Of a DNA stretch of 64,000 bases, positions 8,974 to 45,676 are shown piece after piece. The translations under genes and the position numbers were made by a program. A model generated the notes under the pieces. That model was not told the origin of the DNA. It ran no database searches and saw only the letters and a list, made by a program, of their open reading frames with translations. This stretch comes from a virus: the IMG/VR virus record IMGVR_UViG_3300027798_006580; one strand, given 5' to 3'. Position 1 is the first letter of the stretch; every line of letters starts with the position of its first letter.

Positions 8974-8980
8974 TAAACAA

Positions 8981-9055: not shown

Positions 9056-9105
9056 AACAAAACTTGTATCATGCAGATTCTTAATTTTAATCGCTAAATA
9101 TCAAC

Positions 9106-16756: not shown

Positions 16757-16785
16757 AAAAAGTATTTATACCTATAAATATAATT

Positions 16786-17873: not shown

Positions 17874-17939
17874 AATTATATTTAGTCGTCGTTTGACTCG
17901 AACATCAAAGTATAGTATAATACAAACAAAGGAAAAATA

Positions 17940-18407
17940 ATGCCATGGATTGAAAACGTAGCCGCAGATGATATCCCAAAAAGATTCCATCACGAGCCTG
18001 GTGAGAACAGTATGCTGATCAGTATTGTCGATCCAGCAAGCTGGAGACCTATACCTGCTCACAAGTTTAAAGAACAGCATAATTTTGAGTTCCTTGACAT
18101 TGAAAAGAATGACTTTGCATTAGATGAAGCCATGCGTTGTAGCCAAGAGCAGGCCAATGAATTGGTAAGACTACTGCAACACGCCAAGCTCAATAGAATG
18201 AATGTTGTCGTTCATTGCTATGCAGGCATTTGTCGTAGTGGCGCGGTCTGCGAAGTCGGAGTGATGATGGGTTTTGAAGATACTGGACGATTCCGTAGCC
18301 CTAACTTACTTGTCAAGCATCGCATGATGAAAGCACTGGGATGGACTTATGATGAAGATGAAAAGCCCAACATTGATGATTGGCGAACTTTTAAAAATAA
18401 TATATAA
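17940..18407 (+). CDS. protein-tyrosine/dual-specificity phosphatase-like protein
   Basis: HCYAGICRS (CX5R); own TTGACT-N17-TATAAT promoter at 17893-17921. Confidence 0.8.
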   Translation: MPWIENVAADDIPKRFHHEPGENSMLISIVDPASWRPIPAHKFKEQHNFEFLDIEKNDFALDEAMRCSQEQANELVRLLQHAKLNRMNVVVHCYAGICRSGAVCEVGVMMGFEDTGRFRSPNLLVKHRMMKALGWTYDEDEKPNIDDWRTFKNNI

Positions 18408-18487
18408 AGTTAGTAGTTCGGATCTTTTCGGACATAATTTATTATAAATATATTACATGAATGTGTATTTAAATATTGGAGAATTAT

Positions 18488-19162
18488 ATGTATGATCAAC
18501 TAAAAACTTTGGTAGAAAAAAGAAAAACTCCACGTTTAGTAGAAACTGATAATATATCTGAAGAAAATATTCAAAAAATTCTAGATATTGCAAAATTAGC
18601 ACCCTCTCTTGATCAAAATTATGGATATAAAATCCATGCGTTAACTAATAGTACAGCCGGTATAGAAAAAAAAGAAGCTTTGTTAAAATATTATAGATGT
18701 ATGAATGGCGACGGCACACATCCAAAAATAACAGATCCGTATAGTGGCAGAGAAATGATACAACCAATTTTAAGTGGATTAAGTTTGGTATTTGTAGTTA
18801 CGCCTAAACGAGCTGTTACTATGAAGACCAATGGTATAGATACTTTGATTTTTTGTATCAGGGATGCAATGATATCGGCAACTTATGCCATGATGGCCGC
18901 AGAAAGCCTTGGCTTCAAAGCAGGAGTGTTTGGTAATGTAGATAATAACGGTTTAGAACATTACCCCAGCGCAACAGCATTGTTCAGTGATGCACCCGGA
19001 GCTAGAATTATATTAACAGTTACAGTGGCTAATAAACTAGTTTCCATTCCAGAAGTTGATGAGAATGGCCGGCATTGGTTTGATTACAAAGGAGAACGTC
19101 CTTATGTTTTACCCAATAAACACCAACAGAAAACTGTAATGCCCGAAGTTATCATGACATGA
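18488..19162 (+). CDS. nitroreductase-like protein
   Basis: KRKTPR...AKLAPS...YAMMAAESLG. Confidence 0.65.
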   Translation: MYDQLKTLVEKRKTPRLVETDNISEENIQKILDIAKLAPSLDQNYGYKIHALTNSTAGIEKKEALLKYYRCMNGDGTHPKITDPYSGREMIQPILSGLSLVFVVTPKRAVTMKTNGIDTLIFCIRDAMISATYAMMAAESLGFKAGVFGNVDNNGLEHYPSATALFSDAPGARIILTVTVANKLVSIPEVDENGRHWFDYKGERPYVLPNKHQQKTVMPEVIMT

Positions 19163-19731
19163 TACCTTTTAAATATATATCAATTAAAGAACATCAACTA
19201 ATTTCTGATAAGTTATATGATTATGTTTTACATCACACTGATGTATTAAAAAACGCATCTCCTTGGACTACTTTAAAAAAGGATGATGTTTTAAAATTTG
19301 TTCCTGAGTTAGCAGTTGAATTAAGAAAAATAGTCGATGCAGATATAGAAATGATTTCTATAATACATAGAAAGCCCAAAGTTTACGGGGGTGTACACAT
19401 AGACTCTGGTGGCCTTATTAGGATGTTATTTCCGGTTAGAAATTGTGCAGGATCTTATACTAAGTTTTTTGATTTGAACGGAAACAGTGTCATCGAAAAA
19501 AAAGGCAATGAAGGAGACACATTCTTTGCTATAAGCCAATATGACGCAGTCAATGACTGTATTATTGGAAACGGAAATCCGTTAAAGGAAATTTGTGCAG
19601 CCGAATTAATTTCCCCAATCGTGTTTGATTCAGGAATAGCCCACGGTGTGTACACAAATCCCGATTGTCTAGGACCCCGGCTAACTGCCACCATTGCGTT
19701 CACCAAAGATATAAAATATTTACTACAATAA
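19159..19731 (+). CDS. 2OG-Fe(II)/cupin oxygenase-like protein
   Basis: VHID...AHGV...RLTATI. Confidence 0.7.
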   Translation: MIPFKYISIKEHQLISDKLYDYVLHHTDVLKNASPWTTLKKDDVLKFVPELAVELRKIVDADIEMISIIHRKPKVYGGVHIDSGGLIRMLFPVRNCAGSYTKFFDLNGNSVIEKKGNEGDTFFAISQYDAVNDCIIGNGNPLKEICAAELISPIVFDSGIAHGVYTNPDCLGPRLTATIAFTKDIKYLLQ

Positions 19732-19819: not shown

Positions 19820-20422
19820 ATGCCCAGTGTATTTTTAGTCAGCGACACGCATTTCGGTCACACCGGAGTATGTCGCTTCACACGCAACGACGGAGTTACA
19901 AAACTTCGCCCATGGGACGATGCCGACGAAATGGACGAAGAAATGATCCGTCGTTGGAATGACAGCGTTCGACCCAACGACAAAGTTTATCACCTGGGCG
20001 ATGTTGTCATTAACCGTAAGTCATTGAAAACTCTTGCTCGTCTAAACGGCGACAAGGTGCTAATTCGTGGCAACCACGACATCTTTCGAGATGACGAGTA
20101 TAGAGAATACTTTCGAGAACTACGTGCTTACCATGTTATGAACGGAATGATACTTAGCCATATTCCTGTACACAGTGATAGCTTAGGTCGTTTTGGCACT
20201 AACATTCACGGACACTTACACGCAAATCGTGTACGTAAGGCCCGCGGAGTCGATGCACGTACCGGAGAAATCTTATACAGTGACGAACCGGATGTACGCT
20301 ATCATTGTGTTTGTGTAGAGCAAACTGACTTTGCTCCTATCTTATTTGAAGATGTTATCAAACGTATTGAAGAAGAAGGCGGAAGTGTAGGTTTTAAAAA
20401 CGGCAATAATACTATTACATAA
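19820..20422 (+). CDS. calcineurin-like phosphoesterase
   Basis: SDTHFGH, HLGD, GNHD, HGHLH; sigma70 promoter at 19765-19793. Confidence 0.9.
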   Translation: MPSVFLVSDTHFGHTGVCRFTRNDGVTKLRPWDDADEMDEEMIRRWNDSVRPNDKVYHLGDVVINRKSLKTLARLNGDKVLIRGNHDIFRDDEYREYFRELRAYHVMNGMILSHIPVHSDSLGRFGTNIHGHLHANRVRKARGVDARTGEILYSDEPDVRYHCVCVEQTDFAPILFEDVIKRIEEEGGSVGFKNGNNTIT

Positions 20423-20458
20423 TAGTATTATACAATTTTACTTGAAAGAAATATTAAA

Positions 20459-21274
20459 ATGAAATATCTAATTAGTTTACTAATGTTTTTAATTAGTGGA
20501 TGTGTCAGTGTTAATTCGTCTGGTATGTCTAGGCAGACTGTAGATTCAACAACAGTTGACATTATTATTACTAACAATAATGGCCCTACAATACTATACA
20601 TTCCTGGGTGTAATGGATTAGATAAATCAGGCAAACAGTATCAGCAATATCATTTGAAAAAATTCCAAGAAGTATGGCCCAGCGCCAACATTGTCATATC
20701 GCAGTATGTGAATGACTATACTAAAGGTGAAACTGGCGGGAAGTGTGATTGGTCTGATGATAATGTCAAACTTATTGGAAAACAAATTAGTAATCAAGCC
20801 GAACATACTCAGAAACTTGGAGATTGGATCAAAACACAGCCGTGGTCCAATGGTGATGTTCATTTGTTCGGATTTAGTTATGGCGGCGCTGTTGGTTTAT
20901 GGGCACCTGCTCATAACCGCTCTACTGTTACCGGTAAGCCTTATCTGTTTAAAACAGTGGCCTTAATTTGGCCAGATTGTAGGCCGCGCCGCCAGTTTTT
21001 TGGAAATATACATACACCCTTGCGTATTTGGTCAACTGAACTCGATCCGTTGAGTATTCCTAATAATTGTTCATCTTTTTATACAGACAGTGATAAAAAA
21101 TTATCATTGAAGCTTTATCCGGGCGATACACACAGTTGGATGACATCCCCTAACTTTACTCCGTTTACTAGGTACTGGCCCAATCAAAAAGTTCATGTCC
21201 GCCATGAGTTTAAAAAGGAATGGGCAGATGAAACTTTTAGAGAGTGGCAACAGTGGGCGTTGCAACCAAACTAA
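20459..21274 (+). CDS. lipoprotein alpha/beta hydrolase (dienelactone hydrolase-like)
   Basis: lipobox ISGC; GFSYGG nucleophile elbow; D and H (YPGDTHS). Confidence 0.7.
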   Translation: MKYLISLLMFLISGCVSVNSSGMSRQTVDSTTVDIIITNNNGPTILYIPGCNGLDKSGKQYQQYHLKKFQEVWPSANIVISQYVNDYTKGETGGKCDWSDDNVKLIGKQISNQAEHTQKLGDWIKTQPWSNGDVHLFGFSYGGAVGLWAPAHNRSTVTGKPYLFKTVALIWPDCRPRRQFFGNIHTPLRIWSTELDPLSIPNNCSSFYTDSDKKLSLKLYPGDTHSWMTSPNFTPFTRYWPNQKVHVRHEFKKEWADETFREWQQWALQPN

Positions 21275-21320
21275 TAAGAGTTTTAATTATAAGTATTTGA
21301 TAACTAACATTGGAGAAATT

Positions 21321-21548
21321 ATGACAGATCAAGAAAAATTCGACTTTCTAAGATCAGCTTTTACAGACCTTTTTAAAAAGGAAATGCCAGACGTTACTAG
21401 ACTCACACCGCTTCAAGATCTGGGATTAGATAGTTTGGATATTGTAGAACTACAACTAGAATTCGAAGAACGTTACAGTGTAGAAATCTCAGATCCTAAA
21501 AATGATATTAAAACAGTGGGCGATTTGTTAGATCATTTGGCAATGTAA
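21321..21548 (+). CDS. acpP: acyl carrier protein
   Basis: DLGLDSLDIVEL phosphopantetheine site, IKTVGD; SD ggag. Confidence 0.9.
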   Translation: MTDQEKFDFLRSAFTDLFKKEMPDVTRLTPLQDLGLDSLDIVELQLEFEERYSVEISDPKNDIKTVGDLLDHLAM

Positions 21549-21549
21549 T

Positions 21550-22368
21550 ATGCAGTCTAGTGATGAACTTTATACCAGTAGAATTAAACCAATTAGAGAT
21601 GATTTTGTTTCTAGTATAATTTCATCGGCAACGGCCGAAACGTTTAGTCCCTATGATAAAGAATTCAATTGGGCTGAACGCATCGGTCCAATTAAGCGTT
21701 TACAAATTACCACTCTGCGCTGGTCTGCGAATTGGTTAACTGGTTTAGAAAAATTCCCTTTTATGTATGTTACTGATGGTAACACCGATTATCTAATCAG
21801 CCTATTTAATCGCAGTTACAATATAGCATGGAATAAGGATGACTATAGTTATTACCAACATTGGCATAGTGCAACAGGCAGACCCTATACAGAGTTATCT
21901 GAACCTGCAGATGTCGACGACTTAGTAGTATCCTGGCCAGGATATAATTATGGTGATAATACTGAATTAACATTTGCCAATCAATGCACTGCTAAAAGAA
22001 TGCATTTAGACTGCGCTTATTTGGGTATGGTAAAGCCCACTAATCTAGATGTCAGTAATTTTGAAACCGTTGGGATTAGTTTTAGTAAAACATTGTCAAT
22101 TCCGTATAATCGAATAGGCGTGTGCTTTAGTAAAACAGAAATAAAAGACATATCTTTATTGAATAAGATAGGCTACGTAAACTTATCCGGAGTTAAGCTG
22201 GCAACTCATATTATGAGTAAACTACCACCTGATTATTTTTGGAATACTTACGGTGGCGACAGATTGACTGCTATGTGCGAAAAACACGGACTAACAAAAA
22301 CAGACAGCATATTGATTGCCTATAAAAATGGCAAAAGAGTTGGCACTGCTCCTTACTGGCAGGAATAA
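21550..22368 (+). CDS. PLP-dependent (fold type I) enzyme
   Basis: LDCAY and SFSKTL...RIG motifs. Confidence 0.7.
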   Translation: MQSSDELYTSRIKPIRDDFVSSIISSATAETFSPYDKEFNWAERIGPIKRLQITTLRWSANWLTGLEKFPFMYVTDGNTDYLISLFNRSYNIAWNKDDYSYYQHWHSATGRPYTELSEPADVDDLVVSWPGYNYGDNTELTFANQCTAKRMHLDCAYLGMVKPTNLDVSNFETVGISFSKTLSIPYNRIGVCFSKTEIKDISLLNKIGYVNLSGVKLATHIMSKLPPDYFWNTYGGDRLTAMCEKHGLTKTDSILIAYKNGKRVGTAPYWQE

Positions 22369-22376
22369 ATAATTGC

Positions 22377-23024
22377 ATGAAAGAAACTTTTTTATTTAAA
22401 ATTCTAGAAATAGAAAATATCAGTATTTTAGAACAAGAGCTGGCTGTTTTTTATAAGCGGCACAGAACTGTTGGAGTAGTAAATCGTAAAAATAAAGACG
22501 GTAATACAATTATGATATTATCCGATCCCAACAACCCCGAAGCTGATAGTTTGGGTCCATTGGAAAAATTTACATTTGTTCATTTAGATTCTAATCGTGT
22601 AATGAATCATTTGCCAGAATTACAAAAATATTTTATTAAAAATAATTTAGGTGACATCGAACGCATAGCCTATGTAAGCACTCCCCCACATTCAATAAAT
22701 GCAACACACATGGATCAGGGACCAGAAATTCTGGCATTAAATTTTCCATTAACAGATTGTTCTAGTTCTTATACTCAATTTTTAAAAAACAACGGACGAT
22801 TAGAAGCAGTGGAGTTAATAGACATTGTTAAAGGAACCAAAGAGAAACGAAAGTTTATGAAGTTTGTCACCGACGATCCCATTGAAGTTGGAAGATACAC
22901 ACTAAATGGGCCAGTGATGTTAAATATAAAACAACCACACGGAGTTATTAATTACGGACCAGTGCTTAGAGCCGGAATAAGTTTTAGATTTAAAAAAGAC
23001 CCTTGGCATCTTGTTGGAGAGTAA
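22377..23024 (+). CDS. 2OG-Fe(II)/cupin oxygenase-like protein
   Basis: HMD...PHGVIN...RAGISFRF. Confidence 0.7.
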   Translation: MKETFLFKILEIENISILEQELAVFYKRHRTVGVVNRKNKDGNTIMILSDPNNPEADSLGPLEKFTFVHLDSNRVMNHLPELQKYFIKNNLGDIERIAYVSTPPHSINATHMDQGPEILALNFPLTDCSSSYTQFLKNNGRLEAVELIDIVKGTKEKRKFMKFVTDDPIEVGRYTLNGPVMLNIKQPHGVINYGPVLRAGISFRFKKDPWHLVGE

Positions 23025-23026
23025 AA

Positions 23027-23830
23027 ATGTTAAAATATAATTTAAAAATGGTATCTGACACCCCGCTGGAAGTAATGCCAAAAGAACTAGTAGATAGGAT
23101 ATTAGAGTGGCATGACAGTAAGAAACATAAACTTGATAATATTGGCGCAAGCACATTGGATTATCCTTGGGCAAGTTCACATATTAGAAATGACGTAGAT
23201 ATCAACGATCCTGTGAGAGTGGACAACTCAATTCCAGGAAATCCGTGGAATAATGAATTTGTTGTTAAATTTCCCGAAGCTTTGCATTATTTTAATCAAT
23301 TGCCATTGACTTATATTGAAAGAATTGTATTATTAGAATCCACTAAAGAAGTTCTTAGCCATGTAGACCGTAGTAAAAGTCACGTGCCCGATGCTACATG
23401 TGAACCCGCTAGCTATCGAATGCATCTTCGAGGCTGTGAAAAGAAGGGTTTTTATGTACAAGGTAAGCCTATGTCCGAATGGGGCAGTAGACGTGCTATA
23501 GAGCCGGTTAGTGCAGGATTTACACATTTAACTAAACGTTTACCTAAGAAATTTTGGCAAGGAAAAATAGGCAGCTGGTGGCTATTAAATAATTTCTGTG
23601 CCCAACATGGATCTACCTACGAACCGGGTGATAACAAAGTTATTATTTCGGTACAAGGTACTATTGATTCAGTACGGCACAAAAAATTGCTAGAGAACAA
23701 TGAGGACCGAGGATTGAATTGTATCAAGCACGAAGAACTATACAAATACGAAGAACAATATACTCCTGAAGAAAGACGTACATTTGAACATTTGATCAAC
23801 GAAACAAAGTTTAATGAACATGTCTGGTAA
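23027..23830 (+). CDS. 2OG-Fe(II)/cupin oxygenase-like protein
   Basis: HVD...QHGSTY...KVII. Confidence 0.65.
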   Translation: MLKYNLKMVSDTPLEVMPKELVDRILEWHDSKKHKLDNIGASTLDYPWASSHIRNDVDINDPVRVDNSIPGNPWNNEFVVKFPEALHYFNQLPLTYIERIVLLESTKEVLSHVDRSKSHVPDATCEPASYRMHLRGCEKKGFYVQGKPMSEWGSRRAIEPVSAGFTHLTKRLPKKFWQGKIGSWWLLNNFCAQHGSTYEPGDNKVIISVQGTIDSVRHKKLLENNEDRGLNCIKHEELYKYEEQYTPEERRTFEHLINETKFNEHVW

Positions 23831-24560
23831 TTATTTTAAGAATATTGTTGCCTGCGGTGACAGTGTAACCCATGGCTATTATTTAGAAAATGACTATCAT
23901 GATGAAACACACATAGTCAAATCTAATCAAGGATATCCAGAGATTGTGGCAGAAACACTGGGAGCAAGTATTGTAAATTTGTCTAAGCCTGGCGCCAGTA
24001 ATTACTGTATTGCCAAGCAACTAGACTATGCGTTTACACTCCAACCAGACTTTATAATCATAGGACTAACAACTGGTATGAGGTTTGATTATACTACAGA
24101 TATATTTGCAGATAAACACTGGAAAGATAATATTCCTACAATACAAGATTTTGACTACAGAAATCACAGCCGGTCCGAGCACACAAACAATCATGGCCTA
24201 ATCGAATCACAGCCATTGAGCAGTATCGAAACTTATCATGATAGAAAAGATTTAGTAAACTATATTGCAAAATACATAGACATCGACATTAAGCGTGATC
24301 AAGACAGACATATCATAATGGGTATGTTATGGAAACTTGCCGTTAAAAAAATTCCGTATGTAATAGTCGACTGGACCGAAATGATTCTATATGAATATAC
24401 CAGTCGCGCAGTTATAAGAGACTTAAAGTTATCCGAATATCGTAATCTATATCCCTGCGCCGATGGAGTACATTTCAATCAAGAAGGTCATCGCGCGGCA
24501 GCCGCAAGAATTAATAGATTCATAACTGCGTTCTTTCAGCTTAATAAATTAAAAATATGA
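23814..24560 (+). CDS. SGNH/GDSL hydrolase or acyltransferase
   Basis: CGDSVT, NLSKPGASN, DGVHFNQEGH. Confidence 0.85.
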   Translation: MNMSGNYFKNIVACGDSVTHGYYLENDYHDETHIVKSNQGYPEIVAETLGASIVNLSKPGASNYCIAKQLDYAFTLQPDFIIIGLTTGMRFDYTTDIFADKHWKDNIPTIQDFDYRNHSRSEHTNNHGLIESQPLSSIETYHDRKDLVNYIAKYIDIDIKRDQDRHIIMGMLWKLAVKKIPYVIVDWTEMILYEYTSRAVIRDLKLSEYRNLYPCADGVHFNQEGHRAAAARINRFITAFFQLNKLKI

Positions 24561-25201
24561 TACCTATAGAACAAATAATTTCAGTGCCATTGGATTTACC
24601 CAAGTTTGAGCCCGACAGCTGGACAGACTTTTGGCAAGTATGGAATGAAGATGCAAAAATTTTTAAACGTCATCATCCAGATGCAAATGGCAACGGACAA
24701 GTAGAGCCTGGTTGGAAAGGTTTCGTTTGGGAAATAACTGGTAACAAAGATATTCCCATGTTCACTACCACAATCAAAGATTACAGTGATGTATTTCCCA
24801 AGCTACGAGCACGGATTGATGCGCTGCCATTTACTACTCGTAGAATTCAATTTATCAGTAATTACAGAATAATTGGAGAACATCGCGACGGGTTATATCT
24901 TACCAAGGATACAATCGTGGGGCCAACAGCGCCCCGCATAATGTTTTATGATGCCAACACTGAGCCAACTTTTTACTATACTAAAAAAAGATTAGATGCA
25001 AAAAAATATTATCAAACACTACCAGAAGATACAAATTCATTTGCCTTTGATAATGATAGAACATATCATGGAGCAGTTTATGCTAATAGACTTAAAATTA
25101 TGTGCAGTTTAGTAATCAGCGATATTGATCAACCAGCGTGGACTGCGCTATTACAACGGAGTGCAGAAAAATATCAAAGTTACTGCATCACACATTCATG
25201 A
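24557..25201 (+). CDS. 2OG-Fe(II)/cupin oxygenase-like protein
   Basis: HRD...YHGAVY...KIM. Confidence 0.65.
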   Translation: MIPIEQIISVPLDLPKFEPDSWTDFWQVWNEDAKIFKRHHPDANGNGQVEPGWKGFVWEITGNKDIPMFTTTIKDYSDVFPKLRARIDALPFTTRRIQFISNYRIIGEHRDGLYLTKDTIVGPTAPRIMFYDANTEPTFYYTKKRLDAKKYYQTLPEDTNSFAFDNDRTYHGAVYANRLKIMCSLVISDIDQPAWTALLQRSAEKYQSYCITHS

Positions 25202-25722
25202 AAAATAATTTCATATATAAATATTTCGATAATTTACCCAAGGAACAAATACAACAAGAAATAGTTGCTTATCATCGGACAAAAAAATTTCCAATGCATT
25301 TTTATCCCACAGATATACCAGAATTATTATTAAATTTACCCACTATTAATACGTGGTTTAAGGAACAAGGACTTACTGTACACACATGTGCTCATTTAGT
25401 TCAACTAGCACATAGTAAGCAGGCTATACATGTTGATACTGGAAATCAAAATATTGCACTTAATTTTCCAATAGAAGTTATACCTGATGCATATACTGTA
25501 TTTTATAAACTCAAAGGAATAATAGTAGAAAAATTCACTCCAGTTACTAATATAAAATATGCAGAATATATTGATCACGATCTAGAAGAACTGGGCAGAT
25601 ATGTACTCAAACAACCAACATTTATAAACATTAAACTACCACATTCTATTATTAATAAATCTGATTCAGATAGATATTGTTTTAGTTTTAGATTTAAAGA
25701 GGATCCGTGGCATCTAATTTAG
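25198..25722 (+). CDS. 2OG-Fe(II)/cupin oxygenase-like protein
   Basis: HVD...PHSIIN...RYCFSFRFKEDPWHL; paralog of 22377. Confidence 0.7.
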   Translation: MKNNFIYKYFDNLPKEQIQQEIVAYHRTKKFPMHFYPTDIPELLLNLPTINTWFKEQGLTVHTCAHLVQLAHSKQAIHVDTGNQNIALNFPIEVIPDAYTVFYKLKGIIVEKFTPVTNIKYAEYIDHDLEELGRYVLKQPTFINIKLPHSIINKSDSDRYCFSFRFKEDPWHLI

Positions 25723-26537
25723 ATAAAATATTATTGTTGCGTAGTATATGGAGTTTTAGAGTGCATTGGACTTTAAATCCAAGATCCACTGCCTTGGATT
25801 TATTTTTAAATGCAATTTGCCAATTGTATGCCGCAGACAATTATATAGAATACGGTGCATTCAAAGGCGAGTCTGCGTTTTTTAATACGTCATTGACAAC
25901 ACATGGATATTTGATAGATAATTTTTCACAGGTAAATTATTACAGGGACTTTGATAAACAAAAAATAATTAATTATGATGTTGTTAATAGAAATATACAG
26001 CAATTATTACAAATTAATATGCAACTCATTGGCAATACTAATTATTCTATAATAGACATGGACGTAAAAAATAATGCAATAATAGATAAAGATGCTGGCG
26101 TAATTTTTTGGGACTTGTTTAATAAAAACAGAGATATTGAAGTAGATTGTCTTTTGAATGTAATCAACGATTGTATAACAAAATCAAAAAAAGTTATTAT
26201 TATAGTTGATGACGCAGTACATGAACGCGGAGATGATAATATACTTTTTAATAGAAAATGGAAAAAAATTTATGAAAGTAGAATATCTAAATATTTCACT
26301 CCTTTAGCAGTAACAAGTAACAGGGTGTATCTTTCAAATTTTCAAGTCGACCCTGGATTTAATAAAATTCTACAATTATTTGAAAAAATAAAATATATCA
26401 AACAACAGCAACCATCCAAGACATCTGAATTATACGGTCAACCTATATATGATTCTATTATAGATTTTTCGTCCATGGAGTTTATTGAAAATGATCAGTT
26501 ATGGGCAGACTTATCTAAATGCTTGTCAAATATATAA
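25707..26537 (+). CDS. putative class I SAM-dependent methyltransferase
   Basis: IEYGAFKGES motif I; IIIVDD. Confidence 0.55.
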   Translation: MASNLDKILLLRSIWSFRVHWTLNPRSTALDLFLNAICQLYAADNYIEYGAFKGESAFFNTSLTTHGYLIDNFSQVNYYRDFDKQKIINYDVVNRNIQQLLQINMQLIGNTNYSIIDMDVKNNAIIDKDAGVIFWDLFNKNRDIEVDCLLNVINDCITKSKKVIIIVDDAVHERGDDNILFNRKWKKIYESRISKYFTPLAVTSNRVYLSNFQVDPGFNKILQLFEKIKYIKQQQPSKTSELYGQPIYDSIIDFSSMEFIENDQLWADLSKCLSNI

Positions 26538-26558
26538 ATTTAATTATAAATACATATA

Positions 26559-27191
26559 ATGAACAATTTATCGACTATTAGTTATTTTATACCCAATCTG
26601 CCTAGGCTAGAATTGGATAAAGATAAATTTTGGGCTTGGTGGGACTGCGTAAACATTCCCATTAATAGAACACAAAAAGACAGCAGAGGAAACGGCAGTG
26701 GCTATAACGGTGAGTTTTGGGACGGCGTTACCATATGGCAAAAGCCAGACTATCAAAAAACTATAGTATGGAAAGTGAACTATCATCCCAATGAAGAGTT
26801 ATTTTCGCAACTAATCAAAGATGTAATTAAAGCCTTACCCTGGTATGATGTGCAGGGATTGACATTGTGGTCAAACAAAATCGCAATTCCCATGCATCAA
26901 GATGGACTACCGCGTGATCCATTTCCCAGTGCTCCTAGAATTGCATTATTCGATGACTGTGAAAATAGAACTTTTTTTCTTTTTGAAAAAACAAAACTTA
27001 AGAAGTCCTTTCCTGATTTAACAACAGGCCCAAACTTATTTTTCTTCAACAACGAAAATTGTTTCCATGGTGCCACAGCACCTATTAACGGACGTAAAAT
27101 TCTAATTAGAATAGACGGGCCATTAGTGGATACTGATGGATTTAAAGAATATATAAAATTACAACTAGAGCAAGGTGCTATACATGAGTGA
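26559..27191 (+). CDS. 2OG-Fe(II)/cupin oxygenase-like protein
   Basis: HQD...FHGA...KILIRIDG. Confidence 0.65.
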   Translation: MNNLSTISYFIPNLPRLELDKDKFWAWWDCVNIPINRTQKDSRGNGSGYNGEFWDGVTIWQKPDYQKTIVWKVNYHPNEELFSQLIKDVIKALPWYDVQGLTLWSNKIAIPMHQDGLPRDPFPSAPRIALFDDCENRTFFLFEKTKLKKSFPDLTTGPNLFFFNNENCFHGATAPINGRKILIRIDGPLVDTDGFKEYIKLQLEQGAIHE

Positions 27192-27975
27192 AAAATTATT
27201 GTTTACTCGAAACCGTGTGAGGACTTGGGCAAATAAATTACATGATATTTCTGTTACAGATATAGAATCACAATGGGGTAAGTATTGTCTGACACCGCTA
27301 GATATTCCCAATGTAAATGTAGACGGTATTGCCGAATGGTTCTTTGACAGAAAGAAGCCGGTTGTCAAACGTGTGGCAGATATTGCTGGCGGCCAGCCCG
27401 GGCAAGGTGACTATAATAGTGTCGACATTAACCTGTCTTCGATTCCACTAAGTTACTGGACACGCAATGAAGAACATAATTTTTTAGAAGAGTTTCCTTA
27501 CTTTGTTGATCAGTTAATGGATTTATTTCCTTTTAAAAAGATCCATATGTTTAGATTCTGGGAAAGTACCAAATCAATTGGTCTGCACAGGGATGACAAT
27601 GATTTTAGAGATTTCCCTAATAATTTTAGAACGATGGTATACGATGAAAATCCAGATTCAACTTTATTCTCGGAAGAATGGTTACCTGATGCAACCGTTG
27701 CAACTGGCCAGCGTAAATTTATTCCCAGATTGTCAGAAACAAATAGTTGGGCTTGGAATAATTTAAGAACTAGGCACGGCAGCACTTATGATCCTAATTA
27801 TAAAAAGATCTTGCTGATTGTCAGCGGATTTGAAATTGACGGAAATAAATACAATAGGATAATGCAACACAGTATAAACAAATATTCAGAATATGTTATG
27901 ACTAGTGAAAGAGATAAAACAGATTATATTATACCAATAAGTGATCATGCACTAAAAAAATTAGAAAAATTATAA
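27184..27975 (+). CDS. 2OG-Fe(II)/cupin oxygenase-like protein
   Basis: HRD...RHGSTY...KILL. Confidence 0.65.
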   Translation: MSEKLLFTRNRVRTWANKLHDISVTDIESQWGKYCLTPLDIPNVNVDGIAEWFFDRKKPVVKRVADIAGGQPGQGDYNSVDINLSSIPLSYWTRNEEHNFLEEFPYFVDQLMDLFPFKKIHMFRFWESTKSIGLHRDDNDFRDFPNNFRTMVYDENPDSTLFSEEWLPDATVATGQRKFIPRLSETNSWAWNNLRTRHGSTYDPNYKKILLIVSGFEIDGNKYNRIMQHSINKYSEYVMTSERDKTDYIIPISDHALKKLEKL

Positions 27976-27985
27976 AGGAAGAACA

Positions 27986-28648
27986 ATGGATCTAAGTAAA
28001 ATAGGATATTTCATCCCGGACGTCGACCCGTTACTGCCGCATGACATGGACAAATTTTGGGATATATGGAAGCACTACAAAGAACCATTAACTAAAGTAA
28101 AAGCAGATGGTATTGAATCTAGCACAGGTAATGACTTAAAATCATTGTACGACGAGGCCAACTTTGAAGGTATGGTTACTTGGTTGAAAACAGATGCTTA
28201 CCTAAAAGGCAGCACGTGGAAACAAAATGTAGTATTAGAACCCAGTCTATGGGATCCATATGTAGAAGCATTAGAAGAAAAAATGCCTTGGTATGAATGC
28301 GATTCTATTATACTATGGGCCGCAATTAAACCTGTATATTTTCACATAGATCCTGCTCCAATGGCGCCAGCACCAGTGGCTGTTAGAAGTTTAATATACG
28401 ATACTAATCCAAGTCCTACATTCAAATTACGCCATGGACCGGCTGGCGAAGAACGTTATGTTCCATATAACGCAGAACAAAATTTATTTGCGTTTAACAA
28501 TAGACATTTTTATCATGGCGCAGACTATCATCCTGAATATTACAAAATTTTAATGAAATCATTTGGCAGAGTTAAATATCCAGAATTGTTAGCAAAACAA
28601 ATTAAAGAAACAAAAGAAAAAGGCTTTCCAATTTGGGAGGCAGAATAA
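27986..28648 (+). CDS. 2OG-Fe(II)/cupin oxygenase-like protein
   Basis: HID...YHGADY...KILM. Confidence 0.65.
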   Translation: MDLSKIGYFIPDVDPLLPHDMDKFWDIWKHYKEPLTKVKADGIESSTGNDLKSLYDEANFEGMVTWLKTDAYLKGSTWKQNVVLEPSLWDPYVEALEEKMPWYECDSIILWAAIKPVYFHIDPAPMAPAPVAVRSLIYDTNPSPTFKLRHGPAGEERYVPYNAEQNLFAFNNRHFYHGADYHPEYYKILMKSFGRVKYPELLAKQIKETKEKGFPIWEAE

Positions 28649-29299
28649 ATGGACAATATTTCAGAAGATAATTTAATTTGGACAGTATTAGATGCTCCAA
28701 AAATACAACCCAATGATTGGAATTTTTTCTGGGAACAATGGAAAAAATATTCAGGTGCAAGCCACATTGTAAAAAGTGATCCAGCTGGTAACATAGCTTC
28801 AGAAACATCTAAAGGTATAGATTTTTTCAAAGGCTTGAACATCTACGCTAAACATCCTGATATGTTAAAAGACAATCACTGGCAAGTACCATTTTTAGAT
28901 TATCGGGAAATATTTCCAAATGTTATAGATGATTTACATAGTGCAGTACCGTGGGCCGAAATACATTTTTGTAGATTATGGATGAGCAATGTTCCTATTC
29001 CGTTTCATAGAGATCACACGAAAGAAGATGTTGCTCTTAGAGCAATGATATACAACGAAAATCCACGCGGTACATTTAAAGTATTCAAAGCGGCGGCCGG
29101 AGTTAATTATGTAGAATTACCAGAAGATTCAAATATGTTTGCATATAATAATGCAAAATGTTTGCATGGATCAGACAGGGAAGAAGGTGTTAATAAAATG
29201 ATTTTATTAACAATTCATAAAACAAAAGATAAACAAGCAATGGAAGAGCATTTTAAACGTAGTGCAGGAAAATATCCAGGAAGGTTTAAGTACTCTTGA
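28649..29299 (+). CDS. 2OG-Fe(II)/cupin oxygenase-like protein
   Basis: HRD...LHGSD...KMIL. Confidence 0.65.
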   Translation: MDNISEDNLIWTVLDAPKIQPNDWNFFWEQWKKYSGASHIVKSDPAGNIASETSKGIDFFKGLNIYAKHPDMLKDNHWQVPFLDYREIFPNVIDDLHSAVPWAEIHFCRLWMSNVPIPFHRDHTKEDVALRAMIYNENPRGTFKVFKAAAGVNYVELPEDSNMFAYNNAKCLHGSDREEGVNKMILLTIHKTKDKQAMEEHFKRSAGKYPGRFKYS

Positions 29300-29453
29300 T
29301 GTTTTTATTAATACGTGTTACAATAACAAATCGTTGTTCATTGCTGAGTTTAGGCCACTCGGCCACTTCTTCTTTGGTGCGATAACAACCAATGCAAATA
29401 TTATTATCATTTAGCTTACAAATGCTTTTACAAGGATTAGGGATTAGTTTCAT
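29286..29453 (-). CDS. DUF1289-like small Cys protein (not in ORF track)
   Basis: MKLIPNPCKSICKLNDNNICIGCYRTKEEVAEW... Confidence 0.75.
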   Translation of the reverse strand: MKLIPNPCKSICKLNDNNICIGCYRTKEEVAEWPKLSNEQRFVIVTRINKNIKST

Positions 29454-29455
29454 TT

Positions 29456-30616
29456 ATGTATAAAAATCAAGTTACGACTTGGATCAAAGATGATGTATTG
29501 GATTCGATCTACGAAGATCTTAGAAAGAAACATTACATCAAAACAGGCCATCGTTTGTATAAAAATTACTCTGAATATCATATTCAGGAAGTTAGTGCCA
29601 AGAGTATTTATTGGGGTCATTCAGGAGAACCGGAGATTATCGCTAGTATATTAACAAGGCCTTGTTGGCCAGCCGGCATTTTTCGTATTTTAAATAGATT
29701 ATGGAAACCTGCCATGCTGACAAATCCTATTTTTGAGATCAGCGAAGGTTTCGTTAAATTAATAGAAGATCAAATTAGTTGGTGTGAAATTAGAAAAGCC
29801 AAAGGTGCCTTTATGAGTAGACAAGGCGACACAGCATGGAGAGAATGGGCAATACACGAACTACAAAATAAAACAGATTTAAAATTTTATTTACCACCAC
29901 AAAAGTTTTTAACCTGTGCCACCGAAGAACACAACGACTGTTGGCAAAAAATTATGTACTGCGGGGATGAAAGTGAATTAGATAACTGGAAGAAAAAAGA
30001 AGTTCCAGTTAAGCAGGGATTACGTCTTTTAGACATGACTGATTTTAAACAGCTAAAAGAATTAGTTGATTCAAAAAGTAATATTAAGGAAATTGTAGCA
30101 GATAATTTAAGTGATATATTGCAATATAGAGCTAGATGGATTGAAGGAATGCAAACTTATTATCTAGTAGACGGCTCAAAAACTCATTATCTATATGGAT
30201 GGTACATTGACGGAATCTTAATAAGTTGCATGGGTTGGCGTTGTGATTTACCTGCTCCGTATAATGACGGCTGGGTAGTAGGAAATTTAAAAAGTCGGCC
30301 CGGGTATACCGTGAAAACAAATGGTATCTTAGAACTATGGAATAAAATGTTTGAAATCTGCGAAGGTAAAGGATTAACAAAATGGCACATGGTTATTCCA
30401 GTTTCAAATAGCAGAAGGTATCAGCTAGTAGCCGATCGTTATTTTAAAGAAATTGACAGTAGTTATGAATATGAGTGGTCTATTATTATTCCTCCGAATG
30501 AGCGTCCTACACAGGACTGGGTTTGGGGAAGTATAGGCAGAATTAAACTAAATACAGAGATAAGAGTAAGAACAGGCACAAAAAGAGCGTCTATGTTGTA
30601 CCAAAATAGTAACTAA
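29456..30616 (+). CDS. two-domain protein, probable tandem GNAT-like folds
   Basis: two halves with GNAT-like strand/helix pattern (LRLLDMTDF...YLYGWYIDGILI...EICEGKGL). Confidence 0.5.
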   Translation: MYKNQVTTWIKDDVLDSIYEDLRKKHYIKTGHRLYKNYSEYHIQEVSAKSIYWGHSGEPEIIASILTRPCWPAGIFRILNRLWKPAMLTNPIFEISEGFVKLIEDQISWCEIRKAKGAFMSRQGDTAWREWAIHELQNKTDLKFYLPPQKFLTCATEEHNDCWQKIMYCGDESELDNWKKKEVPVKQGLRLLDMTDFKQLKELVDSKSNIKEIVADNLSDILQYRARWIEGMQTYYLVDGSKTHYLYGWYIDGILISCMGWRCDLPAPYNDGWVVGNLKSRPGYTVKTNGILELWNKMFEICEGKGLTKWHMVIPVSNSRRYQLVADRYFKEIDSSYEYEWSIIIPPNERPTQDWVWGSIGRIKLNTEIRVRTGTKRASMLYQNSN

Positions 30617-30628
30617 AATAGGAATAAA

Positions 30629-31441
30629 ATGCGTAAACAATTAACTTTCGTTGATTTTTTTAAATTAACTTTTAAATATAAAAATTTATGGGCGGGCCTG
30701 ATTCCCATGAATTTAATAGCCATAGCCGCCATTATATCTGTATTTAATGGTATGTGGGAAAATTTATATTGGCTGTATTTAGGTCTGGGATATTTTTGCA
30801 TCATGATGCTGGGAGTTACTATTGGCTATCATAGATATGTTAGTCATAAAAGTTTTGAAACATATACTCCAATCAAATACATTATTCTATTCTTTGCTAT
30901 GCTAGCGGGTCAGGGCAGTCCTATTTTCTGGACAGCGACACATCGAGATCTGCATCATCCCTATAGTGATGGCGAAAAAGATCCGCATAGTCCCAATAAA
31001 GGATTGATGACTAGCTGGTTTTTATGGCTTTGGAAGATAGAAGAAAAGGATATTAATTACAGACATATTATTGATTTATTAAAAAATCCAGTATATGCAT
31101 TCTGTCACAAATATTATATGGAACTATATTGGACTGCAAATTTAGTAATAGCATTAATTAGTTTTGAATTTTGGATTTGGTTCGTTATAGTTCCTAGTTT
31201 TATCACTTTTCATAGCTACAGTATTACAAATTCATTGAATCATTTTAAAGTAATGGGTTATCAAAACTATGAATCCGGCGACAACAGTGTTAATAGTCCG
31301 TGGTTATTTCCGTTTGTATTAGGTGAATGCTGGCATAATAATCATCATGGCGACGTGCAAGCATATAATTTTGGACGAGTACGCTGGTGGGAAATTGATC
31401 CTAGCGGCTGGATAATTGATTTAATCAAAAAGAAAAGCTAA
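30629..31441 (+). CDS. membrane acyl-CoA/lipid desaturase (delta-9 type)
   Basis: His boxes HRYVSH, HRDLHH, HNNHH; DPHSP. Confidence 0.92.
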   Translation: MRKQLTFVDFFKLTFKYKNLWAGLIPMNLIAIAAIISVFNGMWENLYWLYLGLGYFCIMMLGVTIGYHRYVSHKSFETYTPIKYIILFFAMLAGQGSPIFWTATHRDLHHPYSDGEKDPHSPNKGLMTSWFLWLWKIEEKDINYRHIIDLLKNPVYAFCHKYYMELYWTANLVIALISFEFWIWFVIVPSFITFHSYSITNSLNHFKVMGYQNYESGDNSVNSPWLFPFVLGECWHNNHHGDVQAYNFGRVRWWEIDPSGWIIDLIKKKS

Positions 31442-31444
31442 CTA

Positions 31445-32581
31445 ATGACACGCATAAAAATTTATAAGGAAGAAGTTCCTAATAATAGGCCCTGCCATGT
31501 TTGGATTGAAAATAATTACAAATTAATTGATAAAATGAACAAGTTGACTCCCAAGCACGACGGGAAACAGCTGACTAGGTTGAAGTTAGATTTTGATACT
31601 GATCAACTTTTATTAGATATTAAAAAAGCAACATACAAACACAAATGGTGGGGCTGGATTAATAAAAATAGTAGTACTGGATATTTAGAAGATAATAAAA
31701 TTACCAGGATGTACGAAGGCAGAGACTTTTTAAATCGCGGCAGTTATTATGGCGGCTGGAGTATTAAAAATAATCCTATTTATTGCAGTAGTCATGGCCT
31801 TACTCCTGAAAGTGCCGGCATGGGAGAACTACCAAGTCCGATTAGTTGGTTCATTTTTTCTTCACTGGGCAGTGAAATTTTTAAAAAATTAGAACAAAGT
31901 CAGAAATTATTACCGCTGACTCGTGTTGCTGTAGAAGAAGGTTACCAGCAAGTTCTAAGATTATTAGTTCAATCAGAACTTATTACTGCTGAACAAGCAG
32001 AATCTATAAAATTACCTGTCGAAGAAAAATTAAGTCCCCATCATCAAGAAAAAGATAGTTATTACGATACATGGAGTTTTACCAACTGGACTGATGCCGC
32101 AACAGAAAGCGGAGTTCGCACTCTAGCTGAAAGTGCTAACTGTCAATTACTCAGAAGTCGAGTAGCATGGCAACGCGGCGCATTTAGAGATTATAGAATT
32201 GCTAACAAGGAGTACGAAAATAGAAATGATCGATGGACTTGGCACAGCGATGAACCCATAGTTCATAATACTCGTGTTATTATCCCTGTGCAAACTACCA
32301 ATGCATATGCCATGGAAATTGCAGAAAATGGACCGCGTGTTCCTGAAAAAGGATATGCTTATACATGGGATACTAACATTGTACACAGACAAATACAAAT
32401 TGATAACACAGATAAAACAGATCGAATCTATGTTATTCTTGGATTTAATCCATGGTTCAACTGGATTCCAGAAGAACAAGCATGGGAAAGCAATGACTTC
32501 TATGGTAAAATGCATCCTTTAGATATGATGATGGACGGACTAATTTTGCCAAATGTTAAATTTGATAAGGTAATAGAATGA
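31445..32581 (+). CDS. Asp/Asn beta-hydroxylase-like 2OG oxygenase
   Basis: LRSRV...WHSDE...RVIIPV...WDTNIVHR...RIYVILG. Confidence 0.65.
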   Translation: MTRIKIYKEEVPNNRPCHVWIENNYKLIDKMNKLTPKHDGKQLTRLKLDFDTDQLLLDIKKATYKHKWWGWINKNSSTGYLEDNKITRMYEGRDFLNRGSYYGGWSIKNNPIYCSSHGLTPESAGMGELPSPISWFIFSSLGSEIFKKLEQSQKLLPLTRVAVEEGYQQVLRLLVQSELITAEQAESIKLPVEEKLSPHHQEKDSYYDTWSFTNWTDAATESGVRTLAESANCQLLRSRVAWQRGAFRDYRIANKEYENRNDRWTWHSDEPIVHNTRVIIPVQTTNAYAMEIAENGPRVPEKGYAYTWDTNIVHRQIQIDNTDKTDRIYVILGFNPWFNWIPEEQAWESNDFYGKMHPLDMMMDGLILPNVKFDKVIE

Positions 32582-33330
32582 ACGGCATAGGCGGAAAACC
32601 TTTTATTAACTGTGAACAATTTCTAGATATTAAAACTTTAGAAGACCTAAATCTATCTATTTGTACAGGTATTGCGGTCAGTGATATTAAAGCAGGTGTA
32701 TACGGACCGGGCGTTGAAAATGCAGAACGTTATGGTAACTTCATGAAAATGAAAAATCAAATGTTGTCTGATCAAACTGAAATAGGTCAACGATGGAAGC
32801 GTATGACTCACAATCAACAAAATATATTTGCTAAATTATATTTTCATCTATATAATCCCAGTACAGTTTGTTATCTAAGGGAACCTGCAAAAGGCACAGA
32901 TCCTATACTTGCTTACATGAGAAAAGGCAGTGAAGATTCCTACGAATGGACTAATAATATTAAAAATTTTCCCGAGCTAAAAACTTGGCTGGATAGTTTG
33001 ATAGGCACAGTATTTGAACAGTACGGTCGTATATTATTCTTTATTCATGAACATGACTGCGGTTTGTTATTGCATAAAGATGGAATGAAATATGTGCCGC
33101 ATAAAAGCGAGTTTTTGTGGGTCAATCCCACAGGCTTAAAAAAGTTTTATATATATGACGAACACACCAGTATAAAACATGACGTGTATCCCAAGGCAGT
33201 ATTTTTCAATGACTTGGATATGCATGGCGGAGAGCCTACCAGTCAAATGACATGGTCGTTAAGAATAGATGGTGTATATACTCAAAAATTTAGAGAAAAA
33301 TTGGGTATAGATCATTTGTTAAATTATTAA
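32578..33330 (+). CDS. 2OG-Fe(II)/cupin oxygenase-like protein
   Basis: GRIL...LHKD...MHGG...SLRIDG. Confidence 0.6.
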   Translation: MNGIGGKPFINCEQFLDIKTLEDLNLSICTGIAVSDIKAGVYGPGVENAERYGNFMKMKNQMLSDQTEIGQRWKRMTHNQQNIFAKLYFHLYNPSTVCYLREPAKGTDPILAYMRKGSEDSYEWTNNIKNFPELKTWLDSLIGTVFEQYGRILFFIHEHDCGLLLHKDGMKYVPHKSEFLWVNPTGLKKFYIYDEHTSIKHDVYPKAVFFNDLDMHGGEPTSQMTWSLRIDGVYTQKFREKLGIDHLLNY

Positions 33331-33686
33331 GAATTTATAACTTCGATTTCAATTTGATAACCAACGCTATTGGTTTTTAATTCTAATTGTTTTTTAGTAT
33401 ATGTGTCAAGTAATTTGTTCTTAATACCTAATGCTTTCTCTTCATCTTTTTCTTCGATAATTAAAGTAGTAATCCAATTTACTTCCTCGCCTATAGGTTT
33501 AGTCTGAGTTACCTTAATAGGAAAACTTCTAAAGGTATCAAAAGATAAAATTGCATCGTCAATACTTTGGCCGCCCGTTTCTATCAAGTGCTCGGTGGCA
33601 GATTTTTTCTTACTGGGATTAAATGAACTAGGCAGGGTATCATCCCAGTTTGGACCTCCAAGCCATTTAACATTAATAGTGTACAT
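33327..33686 (-). CDS. hypothetical protein
   Basis: TAAATA and SD aagga upstream. Confidence 0.6.
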   Translation of the reverse strand: MYTINVKWLGGPNWDDTLPSSFNPSKKKSATEHLIETGGQSIDDAILSFDTFRSFPIKVTQTKPIGEEVNWITTLIIEEKDEEKALGIKNKLLDTYTKKQLELKTNSVGYQIEIEVINS

Positions 33687-33747
33687 AAATTTCCTTTCTA
33701 TTCTTCATAAATTTATTTATGATATATATTCTTAGAATTAGTTGACA

Positions 33748-34401
33748 TTAAACTAATGTTAAGAAATCTATAACCAAATGTGTTCTGGGACTTGTGCCGT
33801 TGTTTTGTACTGAATGCCGCATTAAATTATTAAGAATAAAACATTCTCCCGTGTCAAAATGACGTTTTTCGTCATTACATGTAATGTAGCTTTCGTTGTT
33901 TGTTTCTAATACCAAATGAACTCTTGTAGTTTCTTCTACAAGTCGATGGCCATCTATATGACTTTTAATTTGTGTATTCGATGTTAGTGTGTTGATTTCC
34001 ACTCCGTGTGTATAATATTGTCGCTGATTGTAATTGTTCAACGCAGTCATCATTTTTGTAGCCAATGGCACAATTAGATCTCGTACATTACGACTAAACT
34101 CCATGCGTTCAATGCTGTTATCAAGTCCAAGATGCCAAAACAGGCCGGCCCAATTGGCATCAGTGTTTTCTTCAGGATTGATACAGCCATTTGCCAATCG
34201 TATATATTTAGATTCGGCGAAGTCAGCTCTTCCTTTGATGTTCGGAGTCAGTAAATGTTGTACTGCCGGATCACTGATGTATGCTAAAAGATTGTTTATT
34301 TCTTCTTTTGTAATATCAACGGTCAGTGATTGAAAAGGAACGTTCAGCTTGACATTGGATTTCAAATAATTAAGCGTTTTAAATAATAGTCCAAATTCCA
34401 T
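33748..34401 (-). CDS. Asp/Asn beta-hydroxylase-like 2OG oxygenase
   Basis: SHID...RVHLVL...HSVQN...RTHLVIDF. Confidence 0.75.
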   Translation of the reverse strand: MEFGLLFKTLNYLKSNVKLNVPFQSLTVDITKEEINNLLAYISDPAVQHLLTPNIKGRADFAESKYIRLANGCINPEENTDANWAGLFWHLGLDNSIERMEFSRNVRDLIVPLATKMMTALNNYNQRQYYTHGVEINTLTSNTQIKSHIDGHRLVEETTRVHLVLETNNESYITCNDEKRHFDTGECFILNNLMRHSVQNNGTSPRTHLVIDFLTLV

Positions 34402-35760: not shown

Positions 35761-36010
35761 ATGCCAAGTATCGTTGGCTACTCTGACCCAGAGGATGAAG
35801 TGCAGTGATGTGTACGGGTGGTTCGAGCAAGGGCCTGCCCCCAGCAATGGGGATGGTAAATCTGCTCCGGCGCAAGCCGCAGTTAAACCGAACTGGCGTT
35901 AGCAATACGAGAACGGTCCCTGTCGGGAAGCGGGTGGAAGGTACGTGTGATGGGTATGATAGCGTCATATCTTGATGTACTACAATTACCGCCGGGGGAT
36001 GCAGAGCATA
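35761..36010 (+). ncRNA. candidate ~250-nt GC-rich structured RNA
   Basis: three GCAA-tetraloop hairpins, a GTTCGA motif, ctctg/cagag closing helix. Confidence 0.6.
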
Positions 36011-40002: not shown

Positions 40003-40014
40003 AAATATATTTAT

Positions 40015-40090
40015 CGCGGGGTACGTCAGTTGGTAGACTATCAGGCTCATAACCTGGAAGACGGAGGTTCGAGTCCTTCCCCCGCAACCA
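40015..40090 (+). tRNA. initiator tRNA-fMet (CAT)
   Basis: C1:A72 mismatch, cgcgggg acceptor, CCA. Confidence 0.9.
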
Positions 40091-44323: not shown

Positions 44324-44367
44324 TCAAATTTATCTTCTGATGACTTGTGCATCTATATAAATATTGT

Positions 44368-45066: not shown

Positions 45067-45068
45067 TT

Positions 45069-45671: not shown

Positions 45672-45676
45672 ATAAA

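Follow-up and report, generated by a model that had tools for sequence, protein, structure and literature searches.

A conserved phage operon of oxygenase-like, PLP-enzyme, GNAT-like and desaturase genes, tentatively read as an acyl-amino pathway

The 64,000-nucleotide stretch analysed here (the window) makes up most of the 77-kb virus record IMGVR_UViG_3300027798_006580 from IMG/VR, which is estimated to be 22% complete. Its subject of interest is an operon at positions 21321-33330 encoding an acyl carrier protein (ACP), a pyridoxal 5'-phosphate (PLP) enzyme, ten oxygenase-like proteins, an SGNH protein, a methyltransferase, a protein with two GNAT-like domains (GN and GC) and a membrane desaturase. 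We tentatively favour the reading that this is a phage pathway, active late in infection, which makes an unsaturated, hydroxylated acyl-amino (aminolipid-like) compound from host-derived acyl-ACP. The reading is built on the observed enzyme classes, gene order, purifying selection, coupling of GN to the desaturase, absence of a coenzyme A (CoA) P-loop from the GNAT-like domains and presence of a late-type promoter motif; the chemical steps and the target we infer from them. A first-pass annotation, made from the sequence of the window, had also proposed a viral acyl pathway that borrows fatty-acid synthesis from the host or has the missing genes elsewhere in its genome. The phage origin and a coherent, conserved module were borne out, and acyl/amino chemistry with borrowed host synthesis is the leading reading.

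Structure, conservation and timing of the operon

Sixteen coupled plus-strand open reading frames (ORFs) lie at 21321-33330 in the ORF listing of the window, as described in the first-pass annotation. The intergenic spacing is between -17 and +21 nt with a single exception of 156 nt. This gap contains a conserved minus-strand gene for a small Cys-rich DUF1289 protein of 55 amino acids (29286-29453, -) that had been overlooked, and which in many relatives occupies the same antisense position between oxB5 and the GNAT gene. All 15 operon genes tested (oxD was left out) have dN/dS values of 0.03-0.24, meaning purifying selection. These values, together with a gene order that is kept in relatives whose PLP enzymes are 49-94% identical, argue that the operon is not a chance arrangement.

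Synteny in related phages had been suggested as a check of the annotation, and the gene order was found to be conserved. In 14 close loci the order is PLP gene, variable cassette, oxB genes, GN-GC, desaturase, oxC or oxA, oxD and a reverse-strand gene, with L014 and L038 rearranged. All 14 have the PLP gene, a cassette, one to six oxB genes, GN-GC and the desaturase; oxC or oxA, oxD and the reverse-strand gene of 119 amino acids are also present wherever the contigs extend far enough. The last of these is convergent to the operon (33327-33686, -), has its own TAAATA motif at 33714-33719 and ends the cluster in most relatives. It belongs to a family of 97-119 amino acids with a second member at 5173-5466 (+), and kin of this family recur beside GNAT and desaturase genes elsewhere.

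The content of the cassette is exchangeable. The SGNH gene is found in 3/14 close loci and the methyltransferase gene in 4/14, so that these two, which had been taken for integral parts, are optional; in other loci the cassette holds a TauD, nitroreductase or radical S-adenosylmethionine (SAM) gene, the nitroreductase homologue being in L013, L016, L018 and L019. GN and GC are separate genes in five close relatives, and the PLP enzyme is fused to an A-type oxygenase in the loci of four relatives. The number of oxygenases goes down to four in relatives, and two of the ten copies in the operon belong to an 'A' subfamily that is scattered singly through the genome as well. The earlier proposal that ten oxygenases act on one moiety is therefore not retained.

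A search anchored on GN found 17 distant loci of 26-39% identity, some of them near-duplicates. In 13 of the 17, the next gene after GN, or after an intervening GC, encodes a desaturase with an HX3HH box. The pair is also kept in a complete 400-kb T4-like distant relative (G308), which has a T4-type gp23 (E 1e-98) and a gp55-like sigma factor (E 1e-6). No PP-binding match was obtained in this phage, and the same search recovered the ACP in four positive controls. Because the pair persists in distant loci and in a 400-kb phage with no ACP match, the GNAT and desaturase genes appear to be the oldest unit, around which the ACP, the PLP enzyme and the oxygenases were probably recruited.

The two-GNAT protein is identical, letter for letter, on 22 contigs, the longest of which is 271 kb, and the 77-kb record is therefore a fragment of a large phage. 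The RNA libraries that contain this stretch originate from lake and fresh water.

A motif resembling a T4-late-type promoter, TATAAGTA, is found at 21288-21295 (+), 31-33 nt upstream of the ACP start, with a ribosome-binding site GGAG at 21312-21315. The T4 late promoter is TATAAATA, and by analogy with it the operon is presumably expressed late in infection. Of 17 loci, 14 have the pattern TAA[A/G]TA upstream of the gene that opens the cluster, and its position across loci peaks 10-11 nt upstream of the ATG. Within the genome itself it precedes 14/16 tailoring-enzyme units compared with 4/25 other genes (p 1e-5), a value that is descriptive because the classes were assigned by hand after some of the upstream sequences had been seen. 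Sigma-70 promoters are distributed in the opposite way (0/16 versus 11/25). In this genome and in one relative, the motif likewise precedes a gene that we read as encoding a GH19 endolysin. T4 gp55 was not found in the 22% fragment or in the fragments of the close relatives.

Contigs from RNA libraries cover 23-30 of the 30 operon bins in four libraries of four studies, many at an identity of at least 99%. This comparison had no silent control, and uncovered bins carry no meaning. The matches are compatible with expression; as contigs they cannot show transcription, strand or a single transcript. Just past the tRNA block, positions 35880-36000 have a very high contig depth with loose ends in one RNA library, which probably marks a conserved small RNA to which sequences of other organisms match.

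Enzymes of the operon

The desaturase (30629-31441, +; core) is a membrane di-iron protein resembling SCD and delta-9 enzymes. It matches FA_desaturase (E 2e-13) and has hydrophobic segments and three His boxes, and it is tightly linked to GN. Its second His box is HX3HH, whereas the other desaturases of the phage mostly have HRxHH. Two such membrane desaturases (HRxHH) lie with a GNAT-like gene at 41392-43552 after a TAAATA motif, and a similar desaturase comes after the main cluster in several relatives.

The gene preceding the desaturase (29456-30616, +; core) encodes GN at about amino acids 1-180 and GC in the remainder. The description of this protein as a tandem GNAT stands in part: the Atlas features of both halves score 0.93-0.94 to GNAT, and pairwise hhalign comparisons with ordinary GNATs gave E 0.004 and 0.002 (reversed controls 0.92 and 0.62). 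Support is weaker than for the other enzymes, with 2/92 GN homologues matching PF00583 (best E 8.5e-4), and a GNAT fold in both halves is likely. The P-loop motif Q/RxxGxG/A occurs in 2/92, 0/19 and 2/21 rows of phage GNATs versus 23/29 control GNATs. Loss or replacement of the CoA P-loop is reported to be characteristic of the carrier-protein-dependent GNATs SbzI and FeeM (PMC11685415). By analogy, its absence from GN and GC would fit the use of acyl-ACP, which is compatibility and not proof. A kinship with LuxI/OlsB, suggested by an LRxxxY motif, received no profile support. Neither GN nor GC has a Pfam match to the LuxI/OlsB families PF00765 and PF13444; a remote relation is conceivable. 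GN was not found among 301 genomes of one bacterial family, a sample and not proof of absence.

The PLP enzyme (21550-22368, +; core) is compact, with 272 amino acids. Its annotation as a fold-type-I enzyme was confirmed by an AlphaFold model with a pLDDT of 95, which matches HisC with a Foldseek E of 7e-11. The VIA Z scores of 19.5-18.4 are tied between alliinase, Plu4, HisC and MppP (rmsd 3.5-4.1 over about 255-262 residues); the MppP group is O2-dependent. K180, D154, R188 and R263 are invariant among 44 sequences and presumably serve as Schiff-base Lys, pyridine Asp, phosphate Arg and carboxylate Arg, respectively. The NPxG Asn of HisC, CobD and MppP is missing, the motif being (S/T)-W-P-G-Y-x-x-G.

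The motifs DxAY and SFSK...R are class I/II-like. The former is D154-x-A-Y157, with Tyr in 43/44 sequences, in place of the DxxH of alpha-oxoamine synthases (DEVH in 5-aminolevulinate synthase); an identity as alpha-oxoamine synthase, including the serine palmitoyltransferase of sphingolipid synthesis, was thereby ruled out. A PLP gene of 397 amino acids in the same slot of L061, which looked like a full-length orthologue, is actually a 5-aminolevulinate synthase. In this related phage, genes for a ketosynthase, a heme oxygenase, a bilin reductase and 5-aminolevulinate synthase (9-1753 and 8173-9366) adjoin a rearranged GNAT-desaturase cluster. The PLP enzyme had no match among GenBank phages and one match only in GTDB, a low-GC fragment; GTDB is a sample, and this is not proof of absence. 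On a contig of a Polaromonas metagenome-assembled genome (L053, about 9000-10370), a low-GC insert is 87% identical to window positions 20303-21292, an alpha/beta hydrolase gene, and includes a truncated PLP gene. The insert is a transfer remnant or a chimeric assembly and gives a weak hint of a betaproteobacterial host.

The ten oxygenase-like proteins were defined by an HxD motif with a distal His 47-82 residues further on, a pattern found in exactly ten operon ORFs. They comprise oxA1 (22377-23024) and oxA2 (25198-25722) of the dispersed A subfamily, six members of the operon-specific B family, namely oxB0 (23018-23830), oxB1 (24557-25201), oxB2 (26559-27191), oxB3 (27184-27975), oxB4 (27986-28648) and oxB5 (28649-29299), and oxC (31445-32581) and oxD (32578-33330), all on the plus strand. 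oxB2, oxB4, oxB5 and oxD belong to the core; oxB0, oxB1 and oxB3 are variable, and in some relatives an A-type gene takes the place of oxC.

oxB2, the one oxygenase that was folded, is predicted to be a 2-oxoglutarate (2OG)/Fe(II) double-stranded beta-helix with the facial triad H113-D115-H170, the fold by which the annotation was to be checked. Compared with proline 3-hydroxylase, the model has a VIA Z of 10.5 (rmsd 3.4, 157 aligned); Foldseek gave an E of 8e-5. The triad and K180 are invariant across 51 oxB rows, and this Lys sits where most 2OG enzymes have Arg; oxA and oxC have an Arg near that position. Judging by homology, the remaining five oxB proteins probably have this fold too, and so does oxD (hhalign 91.8%), a remote oxB relative that keeps the triad and lacks the Lys at the 2OG-binding position. 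For oxA1, oxA2 and oxC the earlier assignment stands as a motif, and for oxA1 also by homology; oxC, a large protein, is distantly AspH-like, one homologue matching Asp_Arg_Hydrox with E 0.097, and has no profile similarity to oxB. None of the operon oxygenases reached the cut-off of a Pfam, PHROG or PADLOC family, the profiles of oxB, oxC, oxD and GN had no sequence match in PDB, and oxB2 had none among GenBank phages.

The oxB paralogues cluster by operon position across phages (support 100/99), a grouping that is partly circular because the tree labels came from best hits. oxB2, oxB4 and oxB5 form separate, well-supported groups, which suggests old, distinct roles. oxB, oxC and oxD are confined to this operon in the genome. 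Outside it, the 77 kb contain about ten more HxD...H genes (A-type, AspH-like or recognised by motif only), scattered singly among tRNA genes at 16211-19731, 33748-34401, 39469-40050 and 44347-47041, many of them leaderless with TAAATA 10-12 nt upstream of the ATG.

The ACP (21321-21548, +), an optional member, was correctly annotated: it matches PP-binding with E 1e-9, and the Ser of its DSLD motif is S38. It is AcpP-like in having the GxDSL(D) Ser and an acidic helix II, and it is nearest to the ACPs of fatty-acid synthesis, scoring below the NCBIfam equivalog cut-offs. A ketosynthase, a loading ligase and a phosphopantetheinyl transferase (PPTase) are missing from the 16 operon genes, in agreement with what had been noted for the first and the last. 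Searches of five records, the 77-kb record itself among them, returned no ketosynthase; the fragments of four relatives, in which alone a PPTase was sought, yielded none, and those of 3-4 relatives no ACPS or AMP-binding enzyme/acyl ligase. All scanned records are 12-40% complete, so these negatives cover fragments only. Given these absences and the likeness of the ACP to those of fatty-acid synthesis, priming and loading by the host is the simplest inference.

The operon had been called ACP-centred, a term that we drop: the ACP gene immediately precedes the PLP gene in 8/14 close loci and is not there in 6/14, besides the negative result in the 400-kb phage. It is present in 8/9 loci with fused GN-GC and 0/5 with split genes, a pattern that is not independent co-evolution because the loci are related. 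In the distant loci L021, L040, L043 and L169 an ACP gene lies beside the GNAT and desaturase genes. A prediction of the ACP-GNAT complex scored 0.30 against a mark of 0.32 and was given no weight in either direction.

Both cassette enzymes other than oxygenases were annotated correctly. The SGNH/GDSL hydrolase or acyltransferase (23814-24560, +) matches Lipase_GDSL_2 with E 1e-7. Pfam cut-offs were passed by ACP, SGNH and desaturase; the class I SAM methyltransferase (25707-26537, +; Methyltransf_24/TylF-like) was assigned by an Atlas feature score of 0.95 to Methyltransf_24 clusters and by the TylF-type genes that relatives carry in this cassette.

The proposed pathway and its alternatives

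The pathway that we favour would be a module of large T4-like freshwater phages, at work inside the infected cell. In it, the phage ACP, or host AcpP where the phage ACP is absent, would be primed by the host PPTase and loaded by host fatty-acid synthesis. The PLP enzyme would make the amine partner from an amino acid by transamination, decarboxylation or elimination, GN and/or GC would move the acyl chain off the ACP, and the coupled membrane desaturase would work on the transferred chain or the product. oxB2, oxB4, oxB5, oxC and oxD would each oxidise one fixed position, and the exchangeable cassette (extra oxygenases, TauD, methyltransferase, SGNH, nitroreductase, radical SAM) would diversify the product among phages. 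The product would most likely end up in the membrane of the host late in infection, and attachment to the virion is conceivable.

A stronger version, which we hold more hesitantly still, is that a widespread clade of large lake phages has a full pathway, specific to phages, that leads to a new aminolipid or acylated natural product, with an exchangeable cassette and unnamed enzyme families (the compact PLP enzyme, the P-loop-less GNAT pair and the Lys-type 2OG oxygenases), which late in infection would remodel the cell or coat the virion. If a lipid is made, phages would build lipid products of their own and do more than nudge the metabolism of the host, and functions could be given to several new families of oxygenases, PLP enzymes and GNATs. 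The operon is amenable to testing: the core (PLP, oxB, GN-GC, desaturase, oxD) is small with natural minimal and expanded versions, the cargo of the ACP is accessible to mass spectrometry, and lake metatranscriptome libraries contain near-identical sequence.

Several points weigh against an acyl-amino product. The ACP is dispensable. The nearest solved folds of oxB2 belong to hydroxylases of amino acids, peptides and nucleic acids and not to lipid enzymes, although these matches have low Z scores and are tied. The GNAT assignment is weak, with hhalign probabilities of 9-13%, and GN and GC match LuxI- and OlsB-type profiles only with E 0.06-0.35, where LuxI against OlsB gives 96%; loss of the P-loop fits aminoacyl-tRNA-dependent or non-catalytic GNATs too. 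The RNA-library contigs do not show a single transcript spanning the 156-nt gap. Finally, the accumulation of oxygenases is a general trait of this phage, because about as many lie singly elsewhere in the 77 kb.

The operon was compared with known systems. The ornithine-lipid pathway consists of OlsB/OlsA/OlsF, the hydroxylases OlsC/D/E and the methylase OlsG. The phage operon would follow a like logic of acyl-ACP, an amino head group, 2OG hydroxylases and a methyltransferase; it differs in having no OlsB (PF13444) or OlsA-type match and in that it includes a dedicated desaturase as well as a PLP enzyme. The sphingolipid pathways of viruses and bacteria combine serine palmitoyltransferase, an acyltransferase and a desaturase. 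PLP enzyme, acyltransferase, desaturase, hydroxylase and ACP are alike as a set, but the operon PLP enzyme has class I/II motifs and not DxxH. As here, a GNAT without the CoA P-loop goes together with an ACP and oxidative tailoring in N-acyl amino acid synthesis by FeeM/FeeL, in SbzI/SbzG (PMC11685415) and in the tyz acyl-oxazolone cluster (PMC10404671), and the nitroreductase in the cassette of some relatives is a further likeness. The phage operon differs from these pathways by its location on phage DNA, by many more oxygenases and by the lack of LuxI/OlsB-type profile similarity (FeeM was not compared). It may work like the FeeM/FeeL or ornithine-lipid pathways.

Among phage systems, Synechococcus phage Syn9 has ten dioxygenases of several families in one cluster (Iyer et al. 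2010, PMC2938197). Syn9-type arrays (PMC2938197; Iyer et al. 2021, PMC7824862) resemble the operon in having ten dioxygenases and no scaffold synthase. Syn9 has tryptophan halogenases and a JmjC protein, neither of which had a match among the 16 operon genes; the operon has the ACP, PLP enzyme, GNAT pair and membrane desaturase instead. It belongs to the broad class of scaffold-less tailoring arrays of T4-like aquatic phages, noted in 2010, on whose product we found no report in the literature. Cyanophage vFAD delta-9 enzymes (PMC5776448) are also phage membrane desaturases with three His boxes, and ACPs are encoded by other phages as well (PMC7760394, PMC13573597). Those have been described as single auxiliary genes or parts of other islands, whereas the present operon couples a desaturase and an ACP to GNATs, oxygenases and a PLP enzyme. 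No paper was found describing this combination of enzymes.

The leading alternative, which we consider unlikely, is the decoration of virion or host proteins: the oxygenases would hydroxylate residues, and the GNATs would acylate them with an ACP-borne unsaturated chain. The late-type motif is in line with this, as are PHD2, EF-Tu prolyl hydroxylase and AspH among the top folds of oxB2 and the detection of an ACP in Erwinia jumbo-phage particles by mass spectrometry (PMC7760394). The operon is however surrounded by 26 tRNA genes, with no structural gene recognised anywhere in the 77-kb record, no candidate substrate gene accompanies the cluster, and the putative carboxylate-binding Arg of the PLP enzyme would rather point to a free amino acid as substrate.

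Variation in content and copy number could mean that these late auxiliary genes form a loose island in which each has its own job and only the regulation is shared: the desaturase would tune membrane fluidity in the way of cyanophage vFADs, and the oxygenases would have targets unrelated to one another. A-type oxygenases do occur singly among tRNAs, and cyanophage desaturases work alone as delta-9 enzymes (PMC5776448). Against such an island, the order is fixed over long distances, start and stop codons overlap, two gene fusions have occurred, and GN co-varies with one desaturase subtype, which makes it rather improbable.

Still less probable is a role in making a small peptide or an aminoacyl-lipid from aminoacyl-tRNA by a Fem/MprF- or dehydrophos-like logic, or in tRNA or DNA base modification. 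Dehydrophos synthesis employs PLP, GNAT, 2OG and methyltransferase enzymes, the two GNAT domains lack the CoA P-loop in surroundings rich in tRNA genes, and AlkB/FTO-like folds are among the tied matches of oxB2. Unlike obligate tandem GNATs, however, GN often occurs without GC and beside a membrane desaturase, the cluster has no conserved nucleotide-handling gene, and a late-type promoter would be unsuited to DNA base modification. A last possibility is that the operon tailors a surface glycan or lipopolysaccharide, by O-acylation, O-methylation or hydroxylation of lipid A, so as to exclude competing phages. Roles of this kind have been proposed for cyanophage clusters (PMC7824862), and the SGNH protein, the TylF-like O-methyltransferases of relatives and the AspH-like oxC would suit it. 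It is very improbable: neither the operon nor its conserved core has a recognised gene for a glycosyltransferase or for nucleotide-sugar metabolism, and conservation is lowest for SGNH and the methyltransferase.

Neighbouring genes

The genes flanking the operon are non-structural. A host recognition cluster with tail fibres lies between vrlC and gp14 (PMC7029224); the operon, with its flanking tRNA and non-structural genes, is not part of such a cluster. Nitroreductase-like genes are found at 18488-19162 and 53365-54081. Three radical SAM genes carry late-type motifs (9106-10521, 12845-14095 and 15197-16126), the first of which scores above the cut-off for the twitch-domain radical SAM family NF033640.

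About 3.1-4.2 kb before the window start, a gene of 366 amino acids resembles by eye PP-loop-type proteins that lie near the cluster in relatives; a profile for the PP-loop-type protein gave no match to it. A GNAT-like gene at 4586-5152 lies near this gene. One run with a late-type motif at 54944-58611 encodes, by reading, an amino-acid-binding protein, a dicarboxylate/amino-acid symporter and an aspartate racemase, and is possibly an amino-acid supply module.

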